From NCBI GenBank assembly GCA_934474225.1, contig CAKSLU010000007.1:5755-69754 (forward strand): a stretch of 64,000 bases of DNA. Direction: 5' to 3'. The position numbers and the translations under genes were made by a program. The notes beneath the pieces are model-generated. The model saw nothing but the letters and a program-made list of their open reading frames with translations, was not told the DNA's origin and did not search any database. This document shows, in pieces, positions 3,146 through 59,475 of the stretch. Source of the DNA: an uncultured Eubacteriales bacterium. GTDB taxonomy: Bacteria > Bacillota > Clostridia > Oscillospirales > CAG-272. Numbering within the stretch: position 1 is the first letter of the stretch; the number at the start of each line of letters is the position of its first letter.

Positions 3146-3256
3146 GGCTCCCCTGTGCAAGGGGAGCTGGCGCGTAAGCGCCTGAGGGGTTGTTTCGTTG
3201 CTCTGTAACAATCCCTCCGTCGGCTCCGCCGACACCTCCCTTTACACAAGGGAGGC
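3146..3256 (+). repeat. R1 five-hairpin element, subtype a
   Basis: GGCTCCCCTGTGCAAGGGGAGC / GGCGCGTAAGCGCC / GAGGGGTTGT..ACAATCCCTC / GTCGGCTCCGCCGAC / CCTCCCTTTACACAAGGGAGG. Confidence 0.9.
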
Positions 3257-9393: not shown

Positions 9394-9608
9394 GGCTCCC
9401 CTGTGCAAGGGGTGAGCTGTCCGAGACGCGCAGCGTCTCGCGGAGTTTTTCTTCGTCGGCTGAACACCGACGATTTCGCGATGCGAAACCGAAAAACATC
9501 CTGACCGTCAGCGCCTGAGGGGTTGTTTCGTGCTTTTACAATCTGCTTTGCTTTGTAACAATCCCTCCGGCATGCTCCGCATGCCACCTCCCTTTACACA
9601 AGGGAGGC
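9394..9608 (+). repeat. R1 element, long form (subtype a plus inserted hairpin and module X)
   Basis: H1 GGCTCCCCTGTGCAAGGGGTGAGC, then hairpin CGAGACGCGCAGCGTCTCG, then module X (9442-9501). The usual GAGGGGTTGT..ACAATCCCTC / GGCATGCTCCGCATGCC / CCTCCCTTTACACAAGGGAGG follow. Confidence 0.9.
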
Positions 9609-13088: not shown

Positions 13089-13202
13089 GGCTCCCCTGTG
13101 CAAGGGGAGCTGTCACCGATAGGTGACTGAGGGGTTGTTCCTTGGCTATGTAACAATCCCTCCGCCGCCGTTCGGCGGCACCTCCCTTTGCACAAGGGAG
13201 GC
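13089..13202 (+). repeat. R1 five-hairpin element, subtype a
   Basis: GGCTCCCCTGTGCAAGGGGAGC / GTCACCGATAGGTGAC / GAGGGGTTGT..ACAATCCCTC / GCCGCCGTTCGGCGGC / CCTCCCTTTGCACAAGGGAGG. Confidence 0.9.
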
Positions 13203-20268: not shown

Positions 20269-20428
20269 GGCTCCCCTGTGTAAGGGGTGAGCTGTACGAG
20301 ACGCGATGCGTTTAGGCTCCCCTGTGCAAGGGGAGCTGTCACCGTCAGGTGACTGAGGGGTTGTATCTGTGCCATGTAACAATCCCTCCGCCGCCGTTCG
20401 GCGGCACCTCCCTTTACACAAGGGAGGC
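20269..20428 (+). repeat. Partial long-form 5' segment (20269-20314) fused to a full R1 subtype a (20315-20428)
   Basis: GGCTCCCCTGTGTAAGGGGTGAGCTGTACGAGACGCGATGCGTTTA, then a complete element with H2 GTCACCGTCAGGTGAC and H4 GCCGCCGTTCGGCGGC. Confidence 0.88.
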
Positions 20429-20448
20429 GAAGATAGCCCAGCACGATT

Positions 20449-28905: not shown

Positions 28906-32127
<3,222 letters not shown>

Positions 32128-32128
32128 T

Positions 32129-32235
32129 CAGCCCCCTCGGTGAGGGGGCTGTCACCGATAGGTGACTAGGGGAGTTTTGCAGAGAGCAAGACTCCTTCCG
32201 TCGGCTTCGCCGACACCTCCCTCAACGAGGGAGGT
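32129..32235 (+). repeat. R1 five-hairpin element, subtype b
   Basis: CAGCCCCCTCGGTGAGGGGGCTG / GTCACCGATAGGTGAC / GGAGTTTTGC..AGACTCC / GTCGGCTTCGCCGAC / CCTCCCTCAACGAGGGAGG. Confidence 0.88.
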
Positions 32236-38661: not shown

Positions 38662-38699
38662 AGGGAAACGAACCGATACCTGCATGTTTCCGCTATTCC

Positions 38700-38807
38700 G
38701 TAGGGGCGACCATCGGTCGCCCGCCTGCACGATGGCAAAAGCGGGCGACCAATGGTCGCCCCTACGGTTTGTGCGGAGGTTTATGCATACCTGTAGGGAC
38801 CGGCGTC
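38700..38807. repeat. REPIN-like hairpin plus a truncated REP unit
   Basis: GTAGGGGCGACCATCGGTCGCCCG..CGGGCGACCAATGGTCGCCCCTAC (38700-38765). GTAGGGACCGGCGTC (38793-38807) is cut off where the R1 5' flank ATTTTCGG begins. Confidence 0.85.
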
Positions 38808-38813
38808 ATTTTC

Positions 38814-38927
38814 GGCTCCCCTGTGTAAGGGGAGCAGTCACCGTCAGGTGACTGAGGGGTTGTATCTTTACTCTGTAACAATCCCTCCGCCGTCATTCGA
38901 CGGCACCTCCCTTTACACAAGGGAGGC
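38814..38927 (+). repeat. R1 five-hairpin element, subtype a
   Basis: H1 is GGCTCCCCTGTGTAAGGGGAGC, H2 is GTCACCGTCAGGTGAC and H4 is GCCGTCATTCGACGGC; H3 and H5 are canonical. Confidence 0.9.
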
Positions 38928-42749: not shown

Positions 42750-42947
42750 GCCTCCCCCCCGGCAAAGGGAGGTGTCATGCGAAGCATGACGGAGGGATTG
42801 TTGCATGGCAAAGAAACAACCCCTCAGTCACCTATCGCCAGGATGTTTTTCGGTTTCGCTCGCGAAATCGTCGGTGTTCAGCCGACGAAGAAAAACTCCG
42901 CGAGACGCATCGCGTCTCGTACAGCTCACCCCTTGCACAGGGGAGCC
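42750..42947 (-). repeat. R1 long form in reverse orientation (module X at 42841-42899)
   Basis: The plus strand reads the reverse complement: GCCTCCC..GGGAGGT / ..GGAGGGATTGT..ACAACCCCTCAG / GTCACCTATCGCC / module X rc / CGAGACGCATCGCGTCTCG / GCTCACCCCTTGCACAGGGGAGCC. Confidence 0.88.
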
Positions 42948-50471: not shown

Positions 50472-50472
<1 letters not shown>

Positions 50473-50694
50473 TTTTCGGCTCCCCTGTGCAAATTTTCGG
50501 CTCCCCTGTGCAAGGGGTGAGCTGTACGAGACGCGATGCGTCTCGCGGAGTTTTTCTTCGTCGGCTGAACACCGACGATTTCGCGAGCGAAACCGAAAAA
50601 CATCCTGGCGATAGCCGTCTGAGGGGTTGTTCCGTGGCTCTGTAACAATCCCTCCGTCGCCGTTCGGCGACACCTCCCTTTGCACAAGGGAGGC
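50472..50694 (+). repeat. R1 long form (50499-50694, module X 50547-50605) preceded by a perfect 21-nt tandem duplication of its 5' end
   Basis: ATTTTCGGCTCCCCTGTGCAA occurs at 50472-50492 and again at 50493-50513. The first copy starts within the uvrB stop codon. Confidence 0.9.
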
Positions 50695-50703
50695 TCAGAT
50701 AGA

Positions 50704-50819
50704 GCGGCGGGAGCAGACGGCGCCCTACGGTGTGTGCACAGTTCCCCTCATTTCGTAGGGGCGACCATTGGTCGCCCGCCTATACAAAGCGGAAACGGGC
50801 GACCAATGGTCGCCCCTAC
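50704..50819. repeat. REP-like doublet plus REPIN-like hairpin
   Basis: GCGGCGGGAGCAGACGGCGCCCTAC (50704-50728), a 26-nt linker, then GTAGGGGCGACCATTGGTCGCCCG..CGGGCGACCAATGGTCGCCCCTAC (50755-50819). Confidence 0.88.
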
Positions 50820-50889
50820 AGTTTTGCAATTCATTCATTTTCGCATCCCATTTCACTCCCCCTACTTTTTCACATGAAAGGGTATTACC

Positions 50890-53724
50890 ATGGCAAAGGA
50901 TATCATCATCAAAGGCGCGCGGGTCAACAACCTCAAGAACATTGACCTCACGATTCCGCGCGACAAACTGACCGTGCTGACCGGCCTCTCGGGCAGCGGC
51001 AAATCCTCACTGGCGTTTGACACGCTCTACGCCGAGGGTCACCGCCGCTTTGTCGAGTCGCTGTCCTCCTACGCGCGGCAGTTCCTCGGGCAGATGGACA
51101 AGCCCGACGTCGACTCGATTGAGGGGCTGTCCCCCGCAATCGCCATCGACCAGAAGACCACCTCGAAAAACCCGCGCTCAACTGTGGGCACGGTCACCGA
51201 AATCTACGACTACCTGCGCCTCTTATACGCGCGCTGCGGCGTACCGCACTGCCCGGTCTGCGGCAAGGAAATCAAGCAGCAGACCGTGGACTCCATCATC
51301 GACAGCATCCTTGCGATGCCGGAAGGCACGCGCTTTATGGTGCTCGCCCCCATCGTGCGAAACGCCAAGGGCACGCACGAAAAGGTGCTTGCCGACGCGC
51401 GGCGCAGCGGCTATGCCCGCGTGCGCGTGGACGGCAGCCTCTACGACCTCACGGAGACCATTTCGCTTGACAAAAACCTCAAGCACACGGTCGAAATCGT
51501 GGTGGACCGCCTCATTTGCCGCCCCGACGCGCACACCCGCATCGGCGACTCGGTGGAGACCGCCGTCGCCCTGACCGACGGGCTTGTGCGCATCGTGACC
51601 GTGCCGCGCGAGGAAGGCACCGCCGAGGAGGAGCGCGACTATTCGCTCAAATACGCCTGCGAGGAACACGGCATCAGCTTCGGCGAGCTGGAACCCCGCA
51701 TGTTCTCGTTCAACGCGCCGGACGGCGCCTGCCCGCGCTGCGCGGGACTGGGCGCGCTGACCCGCGTCTCCGAGAAAAAGCTCATGCCCGACAAGAGCCT
51801 GTCCCTGCGCGAGGGCGGCATCGCCTGCAACGGGTTCAAGACGCTCGAGGAGGAGAGCTGGAACGGCCCGCTGATTGAAGCCGTGGGCAAAAAATTCGGC
51901 TTCACGATGGATTTGCCGCTGGAAAAATACACCCGCACTGCGATGAGCGCGCTGCTCTACGGCACGGGCAGGGAAACCTACACGATTACGCGCTATTTCG
52001 GCGGCACGGCGCACCACCAGACCACGACCTTTGAGGGCATCATCCCGATGATTGACCGCCGCCGCGAATCCTACGGGCAGGAATACTACGACAGCCTGCT
52101 TGAGGAGCAGGTCTGCCCCGAATGCGGCGGCGGCCGTCTGAACAAAATGATGCTGGCGGTCACGGTGGGCGGCAAGAACATCTACGAGCTTTGCCTGATG
52201 CCGATTGACAAGATGCTCGACTTTGTCACAAAACTGGAACTGGACAACGAGCACCGCCAGATTGCCGCCGAAATCGTCAAGGAGATCCGCGCGCGCCTCG
52301 GCTTTCTCGTCAGCGTGGGCCTCGAATACCTGAACCTCGCGCGCCGCGCGGGCACGCTCTCGGGCGGCGAGGCGCAGCGCATCCGCCTGGCGACGCAGAT
52401 TGGCTCGTCGCTCGTCGGCGTGCTCTACATCCTCGACGAGCCGAGCATCGGTCTGCACCAGCGCGACAACGACAAGCTGATTGCCACGCTGAAAAAGCTG
52501 CGCGACCTCGGCAACACGGTGGTCGTCGTCGAGCACGACGAGGACACCATGCGCGCCGCGGATTATCTCGTGGACATCGGCCCCGGCGCGGGCATCCACG
52601 GCGGCTACATCTGCGCGGCGGGCACGCCCGCCGAGGTGGCGAAGAACAAGAAGTCCATCACCGGCGACTACCTTGCCGGACGGCGGAAAATCGAAGTCCC
52701 CGCCGCCCGCAGACCGGGCAACGGCGCGTTTCTGACCGTGCACGGCGCGCGGGAGCACAACCTCAAAAACATTGATGTCACCTTCCCGCTCGGCAAGTTC
52801 ATCGCCGTCACCGGCGTCTCGGGCAGCGGCAAGTCCTCGCTTATCAATTCGGTGCTCTATGAGAGCCTCGCCGCCACGCTGAACCGCGCGGTCACCTTCC
52901 CCGGCGAGCACGACAGCATCGAAGGCGTCGGCGCGCTGGACAAGGTCATCGCCATCGACCAGAGCCCCATCGGGCGCACGCCGCGCTCCAACCCCGCGAC
53001 TTACACCGGCGTGTTCTCCGAGATTCGCGAGTTGTTTGCCAAGACCCGCGAGGCGAAGGCGCGCGGCTACAAGGCGGGGCGCTTCTCGTTCAACACCAAG
53101 GGCGGCAGATGCGAAGCCTGCGAGGGCGACGGCGTGAAGTGCATCGAGATGCACTTTCTGCCCGATGTGTATGTCAAGTGCGACGTCTGCGGCGGCAGAC
53201 GGTACAACCGCGAGACGCTCGAGGTGCACTACAAGGAAAAGAACATCTACGAGGTGCTGGAGATGACCGTGGAGGAGGGCGTCGAGTTCTTCTCGGGTGT
53301 CCCCTCGGTCAAGCGCAAGCTGCAGACGCTCTGCGATGTCGGGCTCGGCTATGTCAAAATCGGGCAGTCCTCCACCACGCTCTCGGGCGGCGAAGCGCAG
53401 CGCGTGAAGCTGGCGACCGAGCTTGCCCGCCGCTCCACCGGGCGCACGGTCTACATCCTCGATGAGCCGACCACGGGTCTGCACAGTGAGGATGTGGCAA
53501 AGCTGATTGCGGTGCTCAACCGCCTCGTGGACGCGGGCAACACCGTCATTGTCATCGAGCACAACCTCGACATGATCAAGGTTGCCGACCACATCATCGA
53601 CCTCGGCCCGGAGGGCGGCGAAGGCGGTGGCAGAATCGTCGCCGAAGGCACGCCCGAGGAAGTCGCCGAAGTCGAGGGGTCTTATACGGGGCAATATCTG
53701 CGGAGCAAGCTTGCAGAGAAGTGA
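50890..53724 (+). CDS. uvrA: excinuclease ABC subunit A
   Basis: 944 aa with two ABC modules (GLSGSGKSS and GVSGSGKSS), LSGGE signatures and CxxC zinc modules. Confidence 0.96.
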
Positions 53725-54035: not shown

Positions 54036-54154
54036 GCGGCGGGAGCAAGCCCCCGCCCTACGGTGTGTACACATTTTCCGCTATTCCGTAGGGGCGACCA
54101 TTGGTCGCCCGTCCGTACCTAAGCGTTAAGCGGGCGATGGGTGGTCGCCCCTAC
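54036..54154. repeat. REP-like doublet; contains copy 2 of the 77-nt direct repeat
   Basis: GCGGCGGGAGCAAGCCCCCGCCCTAC (54036-54061), a 26-nt linker, then the REPIN-like hairpin at 54088-54154. Confidence 0.9.
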
Positions 54155-54181: not shown

Positions 54182-54289
54182 GTAGGGGGCATGGCGACCG
54201 GAACGCAAGCGTTCCTCAGGAGTTTTTCTTCGTCGGCTGAACACCGACGATTTCGCTACGCGAAACCGAAAAACATCCTCGACGACCCG
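54182..54289. repeat. REP unit interrupted by inserted hairpin plus module X
   Basis: GTAGGGG | GCATGGCGACC GGAACGCAAGCGTTCC .. module X (54219-54278) | TCGACGACCCG. The two outer parts equal the ends of the intact unit GTAGGGGTCGGCGCCCTCGACGACCCG. Confidence 0.8.
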
Positions 54290-54346: not shown

Positions 54347-54382
54347 CAAAAAGCCGCGCGCCAGCAGGCGCGCGGCTTTTTT
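54347..54382 (-). terminator. Rho-independent (bidirectional) terminator after the THUMP methyltransferase gene
   Basis: Hairpin AGCCGCGCGCC-(AGC)-GGCGCGCGGCT flanked by A5 and T6, adjacent to the stop codon at 54384. Confidence 0.8.
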
Positions 54383-54383
54383 C

Positions 54384-55514
54384 TCACCCCTCGGGGCGGT
54401 CAAACTTGAAATACTGGTAGAGATAGCACGGAATCATGCCGTTGTAGAGCTTGCGCACCTTGTCGGCGCGTCTGCCGTACAGCCGCTCAAACCGCTCACT
54501 GGAAGTCAGAATATAGACCTGCCAGGGTTCGAGCGAACGGAAATGCTGCCCCATGCGGGCATAGAGCCGCTCCACCTCGTCGGCGCTGCCCATGCGCTCG
54601 CCATACGGCGGGTTGCAGACGATCGTGCCGCGCCGCCCGCCCGTGCGGATGGTGCAGGCGTCGGCAACGAAGGTCTTGACCACATCCGAGACGCCCGCGC
54701 GCGCCGCATTGTCGGCGGCAAGTTGCACCATCTCGGGGTCGATGTCCGACGCATACGCCTCAAAAGCGGTCGGGCGGATCGCCGCCTTCGCCTCGGCGCG
54801 CGCCTCTGCCCAAAGCTCGGGCGGGGCGACGGCAAATTCCTCCGCGGCAAAGCGGCGGAACAGCCCGGGCGCCTGATTTTTCATAATCATCGCCGCCTCG
54901 ATGGCAATCGTGCCGCTGCCGCAGAACGGGTCCCACAGCAGCACATTCTCGCGCGGGCGGGAATTGAGCGCCAGCGCCGCCGCCAGCGTCTCGCGCAGGG
55001 GCGCAGCCCCCGCAATGGCGCGGTACCCGCGCTTGTGCAGCGGCACGCCCGATGTGTCAATCATCAGCGTGGCGACATCCTTCAGAATAAAGAATTCAAT
55101 CTGATATTTCGTCTTGCTCTCGGGGAACCAGCACATGCCGTACTCGTTGTCCAGCCGCTTGGCGACCGCCTTTTTCACGATGCTTTGGCAGTCGGGAATC
55201 GAGAACAGCTTGCTCTTCACCGCGTGCCCCTTGACCGGGAAGGCGTCCTCCCGCCCGATGAAGCGCTCCCATTCGATGGCTTTTGTCCCCTCAAACAGCT
55301 CGCCGAAGGTGCGCGCGCGAAAACTCCCCATCTTGATATACAGCCGCTCGGCGCAGCGCAGATTGATGTTGCAGCGGGCTATCGCCGCCTCGTCGCCGAT
55401 AAAGCTGACTCTGCCGTCAATCGTCTCGGTGCGGCGATAGCCGAGGCGGTCGATTTCCTCGCCGAGGAAATGCTCAAGCCCGAACAGGCAGGTTGCTACA
55501 AATTCGATAACCAT
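54384..55514 (-). CDS. THUMP-domain class I SAM-dependent RNA methyltransferase (RlmL/YpsC-like)
   Basis: 376 aa with an N-terminal THUMP region and methyltransferase motifs DPFCGSGT and NPPYG. Confidence 0.85.
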   Translation of the reverse strand: MVIEFVATCLFGLEHFLGEEIDRLGYRRTETIDGRVSFIGDEAAIARCNINLRCAERLYIKMGSFRARTFGELFEGTKAIEWERFIGREDAFPVKGHAVKSKLFSIPDCQSIVKKAVAKRLDNEYGMCWFPESKTKYQIEFFILKDVATLMIDTSGVPLHKRGYRAIAGAAPLRETLAAALALNSRPRENVLLWDPFCGSGTIAIEAAMIMKNQAPGLFRRFAAEEFAVAPPELWAEARAEAKAAIRPTAFEAYASDIDPEMVQLAADNAARAGVSDVVKTFVADACTIRTGGRRGTIVCNPPYGERMGSADEVERLYARMGQHFRSLEPWQVYILTSSERFERLYGRRADKVRKLYNGMIPCYLYQYFKFDRPEG

Positions 55515-56179: not shown

Positions 56180-56256
56180 CGGGATGTAGCACAGCTTGGT
56201 AGTGCGCTTGGTTCGGGACCAAGAGGTCGGGTGTTCGAATCACCTCATTCCGACCA
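56180..56256 (+). tRNA. tRNA-Pro (anticodon CGG), CCA encoded
   Basis: Manual cloverleaf: acceptor CGGGATG/CATTCCG, D arm GCAC/GTGC, anticodon stem CTTGG/CCAAG with loop TTCGGGA, T arm GGGTG-TTCGAAT-CACCT, discriminator A, then CCA. Confidence 0.9.
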
Positions 56257-56308: not shown

Positions 56309-56439
56309 TGCTCCCCTGTGTAAGGGGAGCTGTCACCGTAGGTGACTGAGGGGTTGTTTTTTGCCTTTCAATCATCTTTTACCATGCAACAATCCCTCCG
56401 GCATGCTTTGCATGCCACCTCCCTTTACACAAGGGAGGC
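56309..56439 (+). repeat. R1 five-hairpin element, subtype a (enlarged H3 loop)
   Basis: TGCTCCCCTGTGTAAGGGGAGC / GTCACCGTAGGTGAC / GAGGGGTTGT..(about 38 nt)..ACAATCCCTC / GGCATGCTTTGCATGCC / CCTCCCTTTACACAAGGGAGG. Confidence 0.88.
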
Positions 56440-59015: not shown

Positions 59016-59165
59016 GTCTATTTTAGGCTTCCCCATTGGGGGAAGGCTTGGATGCGGGGGAGACAGACGGCGCCCTACGGTGTGTGCGCATCTTTCGCCA
59101 TTCTGTAGGGACCGGCGTCCCCGACGGTCCGATTTGCTTTGATGGGTGCGGACCGCCCCAGACGC
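59016..59165. repeat. Orphan c-type hairpin plus REP-like doublet with REPIN-like hairpin
   Basis: GGCTTCCCCATTGGGGGAAGGC (about 59016-59039). GCGGGGGAGACAGACGGCGCCCTAC (59044-59068), a 26-nt linker, then GTAGGGACCGGCGTCCCCGACGGTCCG..GCGGACCGCCCCAGACGCCGGTCCCTAC (59095-59165). Confidence 0.85.
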
Positions 59166-59193
59166 CGGTCCCTACAAAGTTTGTGCGTGATTT

Positions 59194-59427
59194 GGCTCCC
59201 CTGTGCAAGGGGTGAGCTGTACGAGACGCGATGCGTCTCGCGGAGTTTTTCTTCGTCGGCTGAACACCGACGATTTCGCGAGCGAAACCGAAAAACATCC
59301 CGGCGGTGACTGAGGGGTTGTTCCGTGCTTTTGTAACAATCCCTCCGGCGCGCGTGATGTTTCCCGCAAGGGAAACTCATTAGGAACGCTTGCGTTCCGG
59401 GCCACACTCCCTTTACACAAGGGAGGC
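59194..59427 (+). repeat. R1 long form (module X 59242-59300) with expanded H4 region
   Basis: The H1 / CGAGACGCGATGCGTCTCG / module X / H3 parts are canonical. H4 is replaced by GTTTCCCGCAAGGGAAAC plus GGAACGCTTGCGTTCC hairpins. H5 is CTCCCTTTACACAAGGGAGG. Confidence 0.88.
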
Positions 59428-59441
59428 TTATTACAACACAC

Positions 59442-59471
59442 AAAAAACAGCCGCAGGGGCGGCTGTTTTTT
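59442..59471 (-). terminator. Rho-independent terminator of the BMP-type ABC operon
   Basis: Hairpin ACAGCCGC-(4 nt)-GCGGCTGT flanked by A6 and T6, immediately after the last permease gene. Confidence 0.8.
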
Positions 59472-59475
59472 GGCT

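Follow-up and report, generated by a model that had tools for sequence, protein, structure and literature searches.

Intergenic spacers crowded with hairpin repeats run through the 64-kb stretch of contig CAKSLU010000007.1 from an uncultured Eubacteriales bacterium that was analysed here (hereafter the window, its positions counted from its first letter; G+C content ~62%), and among these repeats lie six nearly identical copies of a module of 59-60 nt, module X, which raises the question of whether X is an RNA gene in its own right or a part of the repeats around it. We lean towards the second answer, according to which X, nested among hairpins and non-autonomous, is a module belonging to a new intergenic repeat family that resembles repetitive extragenic palindromic (REP) sequences, bacterial interspersed mosaic elements (BIMEs) and miniature inverted-repeat transposable elements (MITEs), and not a stand-alone RNA gene. 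This preference draws on the anatomy of the copies, on their turnover between genomes, on the lack of association with particular genes or strands and on the lack of a match to any described RNA family.

A 59-nt pattern with a 3-nt loop is matched with at most one mismatch at 32022, 42841 (minus strand), 50547 and 59242, with no match in 100 shuffled sequences, and direct reading shows one additional base in the hairpin-B loop of the copies at 9442-9501 (GATG) and 54219-54278 (TACG). All six share the core of hairpin A, GTCGGCTGAACACCGAC, without a single change. Folded as RNA or as DNA, and on either strand, X adopts a three-way junction as both its minimum-free-energy and its centroid structure, in which a closing stem, GGAGUUUUUC/GAAAAAC(A)UCC, surrounds hairpin A (7 bp, loop CUGAACA) and hairpin B (5-6 bp). 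All of its 22-23 pairs are Watson-Crick, the only unpaired bases at the junction are U11 and C47-C48, and the Z-scores of the fold are about -3 to -3.7. The six positions listed in a preliminary description of this DNA are therefore confirmed by pattern search and direct reading, and its three-way junction holds as a prediction; the variation that it placed in the loop of the second hairpin is indeed found there, the sole further change among the six copies being A3>C at 32022.

The anatomy of X becomes clearer from what stands next to it and from what takes its place elsewhere. With 78 copies from public data added to the six of the window, 84 copies are available, and X is always preceded by a hairpin, h0, of one of three unrelated sequence types (CGAGACGC in 61 copies, GGAACRC in 19 and GCGAACC in 2), the loop of the first type being hypervariable. 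Behind identical h0 hairpins, other repeat copies hold a simple hairpin where X would be. The stems of these simple h1 hairpins covary (GTTTCCC/GGGAAAC, GTTTTCCC/GGGAAAAC, GTTTTTCC/GGAAAAAC), T-to-C changes in the 5' arm being matched by A-to-G changes in the 3' arm, as in GGAG-TTTTCCC-GATG-GGGAAAA-CATCC, GGAG-TTTTTCC-GATG-GGAAAAA-CATCC and GAG-TTTCCC-TTGC-GGGAAAC-ATCA. The flanks of X (GGAG...CATCC) and the kind of stem that closes it (GTTTTTC/GAAAAAC) are those of the simple h1. Because simple covarying hairpins fill the same slot with the same flanks and the same kind of stem, X appears, on this comparison of sequences, to be a branched version of h1, the second member of a cassette of two hairpins (h0 + h1) that spans ~82 nt. 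The inserted module of about 60 nt proposed in the preliminary description thus has to be enlarged, the true insert being the whole cassette. Hairpin B of X (TTTCGC/GCGAAA) and its closing stem resemble the simple h1, and hairpin A has CGTCGGCT in common with the variable hairpin of the R1 elements described below, such that X looks as if it had been assembled from the family's own bricks.

An nhmmer search retrieved one diverged relative, X' (locus L064, 749-805, minus strand), and no other intermediate relatives. Compared with X, its closing stem (GCGTTTTTG/CAAAAACGC) carries two compensatory changes and its hairpin A (CCGCC-GAAA-GGCGG) a wholly different stem; its hairpin B is unchanged, and a GCGAACC-type h0 precedes it; the alignment of X' to X is ambiguous, and X' is the sole informative row for any covariance model. 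In L064, X' abuts a non-coding segment of ~130 nt beside a tRNA gene, which is ~95% conserved between two genomes (L064 600-745; L010 ~200-338) and contains the tRNA-like pieces GGGGTTCGAATC and CAGGGATTCAGAACCC. The best Rfam hit of this segment, PrrB/RsmZ, stays below threshold (24.8 bits versus 44).

The usual host of the cassette in the window is an imperfect palindrome, R1. Between its ends (GGCTCCCCTGTGCAAGGGG... and ...CCTCCCTTTGCACAAGGGAGGCT) lie a first variable hairpin, the 11-bp core hairpin and then another variable one, and whole elements fold with the two ends paired round these inner hairpins. The window contains eleven R1-type elements, six short and five long; irrespective of how the neighbouring genes are oriented, ten of the eleven run along the plus strand. 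In the long form ~82 extra bases, made up of h0 (CGAGACGC-nnn-GCGTCTCG), one base and X, stand between the left terminal hairpin (with a following TGTA) and the first variable hairpin. The host R1 thus has imperfect inverted ends that pair in the fold, and the h0 + X cassette itself is without terminal inverted repeats. As had been described, X occurs in a subset of elements (five of the eleven R1-type elements). The further statement that five copies sit in long-form R1 elements after an extra hairpin stands for those at 9442, 42841, 50547 and 59242 and needs qualification for that at 32022, which belongs to a variant element with the left hairpin CTTCCCTTGGGGGAG and an imperfect h0 (CGAGACGC/GCGTCACG). 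The sixth copy, at 54219, had been placed inside a REP unit: a GTAG-tagged REP-like unit does precede it, but the copy lacks a strong predicted REP stem enclosing it. In the element at 59194-59428 the right arm contains a second, inverted cassette (GGAACGC-nn-GCGTTCC followed by GTTTCCC-TTGC-GGGAAAC).

The cassette slot in R1 and its relatives is fixed, lying in either arm directly behind the terminal hairpin and TGTA. Both R1 and relatives that differ from it in their terminal or core hairpins use the slot of the left arm, and in the right arm (L005, L025) the cassette is inverted, so that the order terminal hairpin-TGTA-h0-X is preserved. Outside R1, the cassette follows a GTAG-tagged REP-like unit at 54219 of the window and in 18 other copies, and it is found within the loop of a REP hairpin (GGCGGG...CCCGCC-CTAC, L003) and within the loop of a bidirectional terminator hairpin consisting of an A-run, a stem and a T-run (L037). 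For this terminator-nested copy no empty site was found, the relative that was compared (L070) having a different terminator, so that its insertion is a presumed one.

The distribution of X is narrow. In a profile search of 634 kb of related DNA, with copies counted at 45 bits or more, only three matches lay below the 84 copies (19.7, 15.8 and 8.9 bits). A genome scan with a pattern that left the stem of hairpin A free gave 40 matches, all in four species-level metagenome-assembled genomes (MAGs): an uncultured Eubacteriales from Hadza samples, Oscillospiraceae CIM:MAG 1170_1, Clostridia HGM12662 and Clostridiales W2P9.058. The positions left free were identical to those of the window save in one copy (L035, CTGAC for CCGAC). 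A metagenome scan anchored on the closing stem alone, with 10-40 free interior bases, gave 33 human-gut contigs, all with the full canonical interior, and searches of viral contigs, phages and plasmids gave no match. Conservation beyond the source strain, for which the preliminary description had proposed a search, is hence established by the 78 further copies from four MAG species and 33 gut contigs. As the window is 81-94% identical to the syntenic loci of three MAGs, these genomes represent different species of one genus-level group, and the repeat family is limited to this group of uncultured human-gut Oscillospiraceae. Several MAG contigs (L019, L020, L028, L036) end, or carry N-gaps, inside or beside X; since the repeats break short-read assemblies in this manner, the MAG copy numbers are underestimates.

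Within this group X hardly varies. Among 81 complete copies, leaving out the hairpin-B loop, 32 of 4617 positions (0.7%) differ from the consensus, the consensus is equal in each of five species, and there are no species-specific substitutions. About 90% of copies retain CTGAACA as the loop of hairpin A, in contrast to the hairpin-B loop (ten variants in the complete copies) and the h0 loop, which vary freely, as do the neighbouring hairpins; the earlier remark that X is better conserved than its surroundings is upheld. The same figures, set against genes that differ by 7-24% between at least five species, are what could be expected if X were a host-beneficial structured motif maintained by purifying selection at each copy, either as RNA in untranslated regions or as folded DNA. 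Such a motif could, for example, be a platform for one protein reading the hairpin-A loop, with a role in mRNA 3'-end stability, termination or nucleoid organisation. Its proponents could also point to the closing stem, which covaries across X, X' and the wider family of simple h1 variants, to the enrichment of X at gene 3' ends and in convergent spacers, and to h0 with its following U-run, which resembles a weak terminator. The covariation of the closing stem is equally fitting for DNA hairpins. A scan flagged h0 + GGAGTTTTTCTT as terminator-like, with a U-run that begins 5 nt past the stem and with mixed orientation relative to the genes.

Several observations speak against such a host motif. 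None of the 23 pairs inside canonical X covaries among 26 distinct variants, because the copies barely vary, and the all-Watson-Crick fold is equal on both strands; the covariation check proposed earlier accordingly comes out empty within X and positive only for its closing stem in the comparison with h1 variants and X'. In the window X is in the sense orientation to genes at three copies and antisense at three. Among 44 X-bearing spacers, based on crude gene calls, 21 are convergent, 21 tandem (16 antisense, 5 sense) and 2 divergent, convergent spacers being enriched. In the same kind of crude, composition-based calls three copies appear to overlap an open reading frame (ORF; L005, L063, L067), that of L005 spanning a repeat-filled spacer. 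The neighbours are unrelated housekeeping genes: by Pfam, those beside the six window copies encode MreC, a beta-galactosidase, a GH127-like protein, a histidine kinase, UvrB, an RlmL-type methyltransferase, an SLH protein and an ABC permease, two more flanking proteins of the window having no Pfam match, and of 17 flanking proteins overall 13 belong to housekeeping families and 4 have no match. The 944-aa ORF at 50890-53724 is probably uvrA. Further, R1 elements without X are about as common in the window as those with it (6 short versus 5 long), the presence of X at orthologous sites is not conserved, and X matches no Rfam family. Taken together, these points make the host motif an unlikely, though by no means negligible, explanation.

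The turnover of the elements is best seen where the same spacer can be compared between genomes. The spacer orthologous to window 38665-38904 exists in four states in four genomes, namely a REP with a short R1 (window), a long R1 with X (L015), a REP-like X with other repeats (L009) and only 54 nt (L030). Likewise, the spacer 3' of the 944-aa ORF holds X in the same orientation in the window and in L055, in entirely different elements. Four strains with flanks 93-97% identical have one common R1 with X, whose h0 loop, hairpin next to X on its 3' side and 47-nt cassette of the right arm vary from strain to strain; the combinations of these differences fit no single tree and thus point to recombination between modules, and another pair of strains shows the replacement of a whole arm. 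At sites shared by loci with flanks 89-95% identical (L023/L041, L042/L056, L018/L049), X itself is unchanged or differs by 1 base, and in L006/L017, with flanks 76-80% identical, it is unchanged save for a 1-base difference in the length of the hairpin-B loop. The flanking modules of the same elements have diverged far more.

It is against this pattern that a recent sweep has to be judged, in which the near-identity of the copies would reflect only the spread of a young variant through the genomes and, via horizontal transfer or recombination, from one species to another, X itself being free of selection. Similarities among copies fall into two modes and decayed, old copies are missing, species-specific substitutions are lacking, many sites are non-orthologous, and the same spacer can present X in different contexts (54219 versus L055; 38665-38904 versus L015 and L009), all of which a sweep would produce. 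Yet X occupies the same site and context in lineages with flanks 89-95% and even 76-80% identical, its neighbouring modules have diverged far more than it has, and the phage, plasmid and viral collections, where vectors might be sought, contain no X. We therefore consider a sweep on its own improbable, even more so than a host motif, and the very recent spread envisaged in the preliminary description is not borne out, given shared sites with flanks 76-95% identical and one consensus in five species.

The other suggestion of that description, a functional RNA, receives no positive support. Rfam 15 at the gathering threshold returned only a tRNA for the whole window, and at E<=10 over 59150-59470 the sole overlap with X was CyVA-1 (59264-59309, minus strand), at chance level (13.5 bits versus a gathering threshold of 41.4; E = 3.8); at permissive E-values the X' locus yielded only tRNAs and noise. 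The proposed Rfam check has thus been run, with no family for X. No promoter-like site was found in the region scanned round the 59242 copy. Together with the lack of covariation inside X, the mixed gene orientation, the unrelated housekeeping neighbours and the rapid gain and loss at orthologous sites, these results speak against a functional RNA. A coding reading of X is ruled out by the 1-nt variation in loop length between copies. That X belongs to a known RNA class, such as a self-cleaving ribozyme (hammerhead, twister-sister), a riboswitch or a transposon guide or bridge RNA, might be entertained for its three-way-junction topology, its size of ~60 nt, its many copies and its association with mobile-looking repeats, but is largely refuted and now very improbable, as Rfam gives only chance-level matches, the hammerhead core (CUGANGA ... 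GAAA ... UH) is absent from a junction with so few unpaired bases, no transposase-like repeated ORF lies beside the copies, and the loop indels exclude coding. A literature search gave no match to the X sequence or to REP-like repeats in Oscillospiraceae/Ruminococcaceae.

Among the known systems with which the elements can be compared are IS200/IS605 insertion sequences (IS). In these, co-orientation has been reported for replication-coupled transposition of single-stranded DNA. R1 cores are co-oriented within contigs in 36 of 39 cases (simulated P = 5e-5), the split within the window being 9:1, regardless of gene strand; this is a count in which loci of the same contig may overlap, orthologous contigs are kept separate and contig orientation is assumed to be kept. 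The co-orientation persists where both neighbouring genes lie on the opposite strand, and the GC skew of the window is too weak to indicate the direction of replication. This is as expected for strand-specific insertion of single-stranded DNA and hints at an insertion linked to replication. The cassette is further similar to IS200/IS605 in having hairpins at both ends (h0 and h1/X), no inverted repeat of its own, no target duplication and co-oriented hosts; it differs in that no conserved tetra- or pentanucleotide stands 5' of the insertion and no TnpA/TnpB was found in the DNA searched. A resemblance of the hairpin-A loop to an IS91 target site (GAAC; CAAG in one variant) was considered and dropped, as other loop variants lose the motif.

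The likeness to REPs, BIMEs and REPINs, the last being paired REPs, is broader. Like these, the X family is short, abundant, hairpin-forming and extragenic, forms mosaic clusters with other repeats, is enriched in convergent and tandem spacers, includes inverted doublets that fold into larger structures, keeps a long-stable consensus and nests in palindromes (PMC3733652; PMC3116915), and REPs nested inside other palindromes have a documented precedent (PMC3733652). The placement of X, with a high copy number (84) in extragenic, convergent or co-directional spacers, is likewise that of REPs. By their defining structure REPs are palindromic, measure 20-40 bp and carry, 0-2 nt 5' of the stem, a GTAG/GTGG tag (PMC6006769, PMC3733652). 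A neighbouring unit at 54088-54111 (GTAG+GGGCGACC-ATT-GGTCGCCC) has precisely this structure, and genuine GTAG-tagged REPs such as this one adjoin X-bearing elements. X does not, as it starts with GGAG, measures 59 nt, is branched and has no GTAG or CGTC tag; it differs from REPs also as an optional sub-module within larger elements and in its Clostridia host, Firmicutes/Clostridia being unmentioned in the REP survey of PMC3733652. From MITEs the cassette is set apart by the lack of target duplication; inverted repeats are lacking in the cassette itself and present, in imperfect form, at the ends of its host R1. No repeated transposase-like ORF near the copies and no plasmid or phage similarity was found.

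Pneumococcal BOX elements (boxA-boxB(n)-boxC) and the Correia and mosaic intergenic repeats of Neisseria are modular, non-autonomous repeats. Like the X family, they are dispersed between genes, end in inverted repeats, have a strong predicted secondary structure and consist of modules that can be exchanged, with one module that may be missing or vary in number. There is no sequence similarity between them, and X is nested, branched and also present outside the main element, in REP and terminator loops. As a purely structural analogy, the T-shaped terminal hairpins of parvoviruses, such as the inverted terminal repeats of adeno-associated virus, which are read by an HUH Rep protein, similarly have a closing palindrome round two hairpins, with one tip invariant and one variable and with only Watson-Crick pairs; all-Watson-Crick pairing is as expected for a DNA structure. 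X, by contrast, is chromosomal, internal and multi-copy, and no Rep-binding repeats or nick site were identified in it. Since the defining rules of REPs, MITEs and IS200/IS605 do not describe it, X is best filed as a hairpin-based non-autonomous repeat with a branched nested module.

Under the repeat-family reading, the elements would spread as folded single-stranded DNA into or beside hairpins, with the driving enzyme supplied in trans, for which an HUH/Y1-type transposase would be the obvious candidate, and the copies would then be reshuffled via recombination or gene conversion. The presence of GTAG-tagged REPs in a Clostridia genome suggests that a gene like that of the REP-associated tyrosine transposase (RAYT) exists elsewhere in the genome. 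The near-invariance of X may be the combined outcome of a single origin, homogenisation among copies and selection, on the part of the element or of the host, on the exact sequence including the hairpin-A loop. A number of observations weigh against this reading. Clustering of the ORFs of all loci into paralogues gave only two tandem pairs of adjacent ORFs and no multi-copy ORF near the copies; tblastn with approximate query sequences found no Y1 transposase (RAYT, IS200) in the 634 kb; and no TnpB, IscB or IS110 gene stands beside any copy. No target-site duplication was seen at the borders of the cassette or of R1, the 5' flanks of the cassette (CTGTA, GACC, CCCC, GCTT, CACC) have no common target motif, and no clean pair of empty and filled sites that would define the cassette ends was found among the loci compared. 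The orientation statistics depend on crude gene calls, possibly overlapping loci and an assumed contig orientation. Finally, the conservation of X across flanks 76-95% identical and five species exceeds what simple selfish spread predicts. Since this conservation, including that of the hairpin-A loop, is extreme, there is room for selection on X as a recognition site for a mobilising protein or as a host motif, and X may have a role as single-stranded DNA. It is conceivable, if doubtful, that the h0 + X cassette is a T-shaped single-stranded DNA recognition site of a putative trans-acting enzyme, HUH-type or other, which would place cassettes in hairpin loops, the hairpin-A loop being the point of protein contact or nicking. 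If so, mobile DNA would have a nested-hairpin mode in which branched junctions are built, and the whole modular, 'Lego-like' repeat system of this clade would be accounted for.

Table 1. Features of the X-bearing element at 59194-59428, the other X cassettes and the R1 cores of the window
Feature	Position	Strand	Basis or remark
R1 left terminal hairpin and inverted-repeat arm (GGCTCCCCTGTGCAAGGGGTGAGC)	59194..59217	+	5 window matches versus 0 in shuffles; pairs with 59406-59428 in element fold
h0 hairpin, CGAGACGC-GAT-GCGTCTCG, first half of cassette	59222..59240	+	direct reading; flagged terminator-like with following T-run
Module X, three-way junction, branched h1 variant	59242..59300	+	pattern search, folding, covariation analysis
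R1 core hairpin, CTGAGGGGTTGTT...AACAATCCCTCCG, conserved G-T wobble on plus strand	59310..59347	+	element fold
Simple h1 hairpin (module Y), GTTTCCC-TTGC-GGGAAAC, right arm; inverted, unbranched counterpart of X	59359..59376	-	
h0' hairpin, GGAACGC-AA-GCGTTCC, right arm; type also preceding X at 54219	59383..59398	-	
R1 right terminal hairpin and inverted-repeat arm	59406..59428	+	element fold
h0 (9422-9440) + X (9442-9501), long-form R1 between mreC and next gene	9422..9501	+	
Imperfect h0 (32002-32020) + X (32022-32080), variant element with left hairpin CTTCCCTTGGGGGAG	32002..32080	+	
X (42899-42841) + h0 (42919-42901), sole minus-strand R1 of window	42841..42919	-	
h0 (50527-50545) + X (50547-50605), long-form R1 between uvrB and 944-aa ORF 50890-53724	50527..50605	+	
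h0' (GGAACGC-AAG-GCGTTCC, 54200-54215) + X (54219-54278), after REP-like unit, GTAG at 54182	54200..54278	+	
R1 cores	3182, 9515, 13127, 17736, 20353, 32096, 38852, 42815(-), 50619, 56346, 59310		

Beyond the cassette, the R1 elements show further signs of modular change. Between the R1 core and the terminal hairpin on its right, the slot is always filled by a perfect GC-rich hairpin whose stem is wholly different between copies, as in CCGCCG/CGGCGG (3220-3234), TCATGC/GCATGA (13165-13180), TCGGC/GCCGA (42770-42786) and TCGCCG/CGGCGA (50657-50672); either pairing in this slot is under strong selection or some mechanism makes perfect palindromes. The left end of R1, 21 nt (ATTTTCGGCTCCCCTGTGCAA), is tandemly duplicated right behind the uvrB stop codon (50472-50513). 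In two species a left arm breaks off at the same point of h0 (...CGAGACGCGATGCGTTT), and a new, complete element with (T)AGGCT as its first bases follows immediately (window 20269-20430; L037 5345-5290, minus strand); a fixed point in h0 may thus be subject to repeated insertion or recombination.

Other repeats populate the same spacers. A second composite family, R2 (TTTTTCAGCCCCCTCGGTGAGGGGGCTG-TCACCGATAGGTGA-CTAGGGGAGTTTTGC...GCAAGACTCCTTCC-hairpin-CCTCCCTCAACGAGGGAGG), has the same hairpin-brick architecture as R1 with different stems, and is found at 32125-32235 of the window, in L029 (reverse) and at 3640-3745 of L005. GTAG-tagged REP hairpins occur in REPIN-like inverted pairs at 54088-54154, 50757-50820 and 38700-38790 (for example GTAGGGGCGACC-ATT-GGTCGCCCG ... 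GCGGGCGATGGGTGGTCGCCCCTAC), and a second REP type, GCGGCGGGAGCAAGCCCCCGCCCTACGG, often stands directly 3' of R1 (e.g. 42735, 50703, 56443). Bidirectional intrinsic terminators, each with an A-run, a GC stem and a T-run, lie at 59441-59472 and 54350-54385, just past X-bearing elements and between convergent or tandem genes. A tRNA gene (56180-56253, 62.6 bits) is followed by a terminator and then by the short-form R1 at 56346.

The X family is a solid observation, clade-specific and undescribed, of a kind, hairpin-based non-autonomous intergenic repeats, that is already known, and if X is only a passenger brick it belongs to ordinary repeat biology. The family nevertheless lets one study in natural sequences the assembly of branched DNA or RNA structures from simpler hairpins, and its repeats provide strain-variable markers. 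Being near-invariant across species whose genes differ by ~10-20%, X is a good probe for a protein that reads it. Most of the work on REP-like repeats and the enzymes that go with them concerns Proteobacteria, and a rich modular system of this type in human-gut Oscillospiraceae, which are abundant though uncultured, would extend their biology to the Clostridia.

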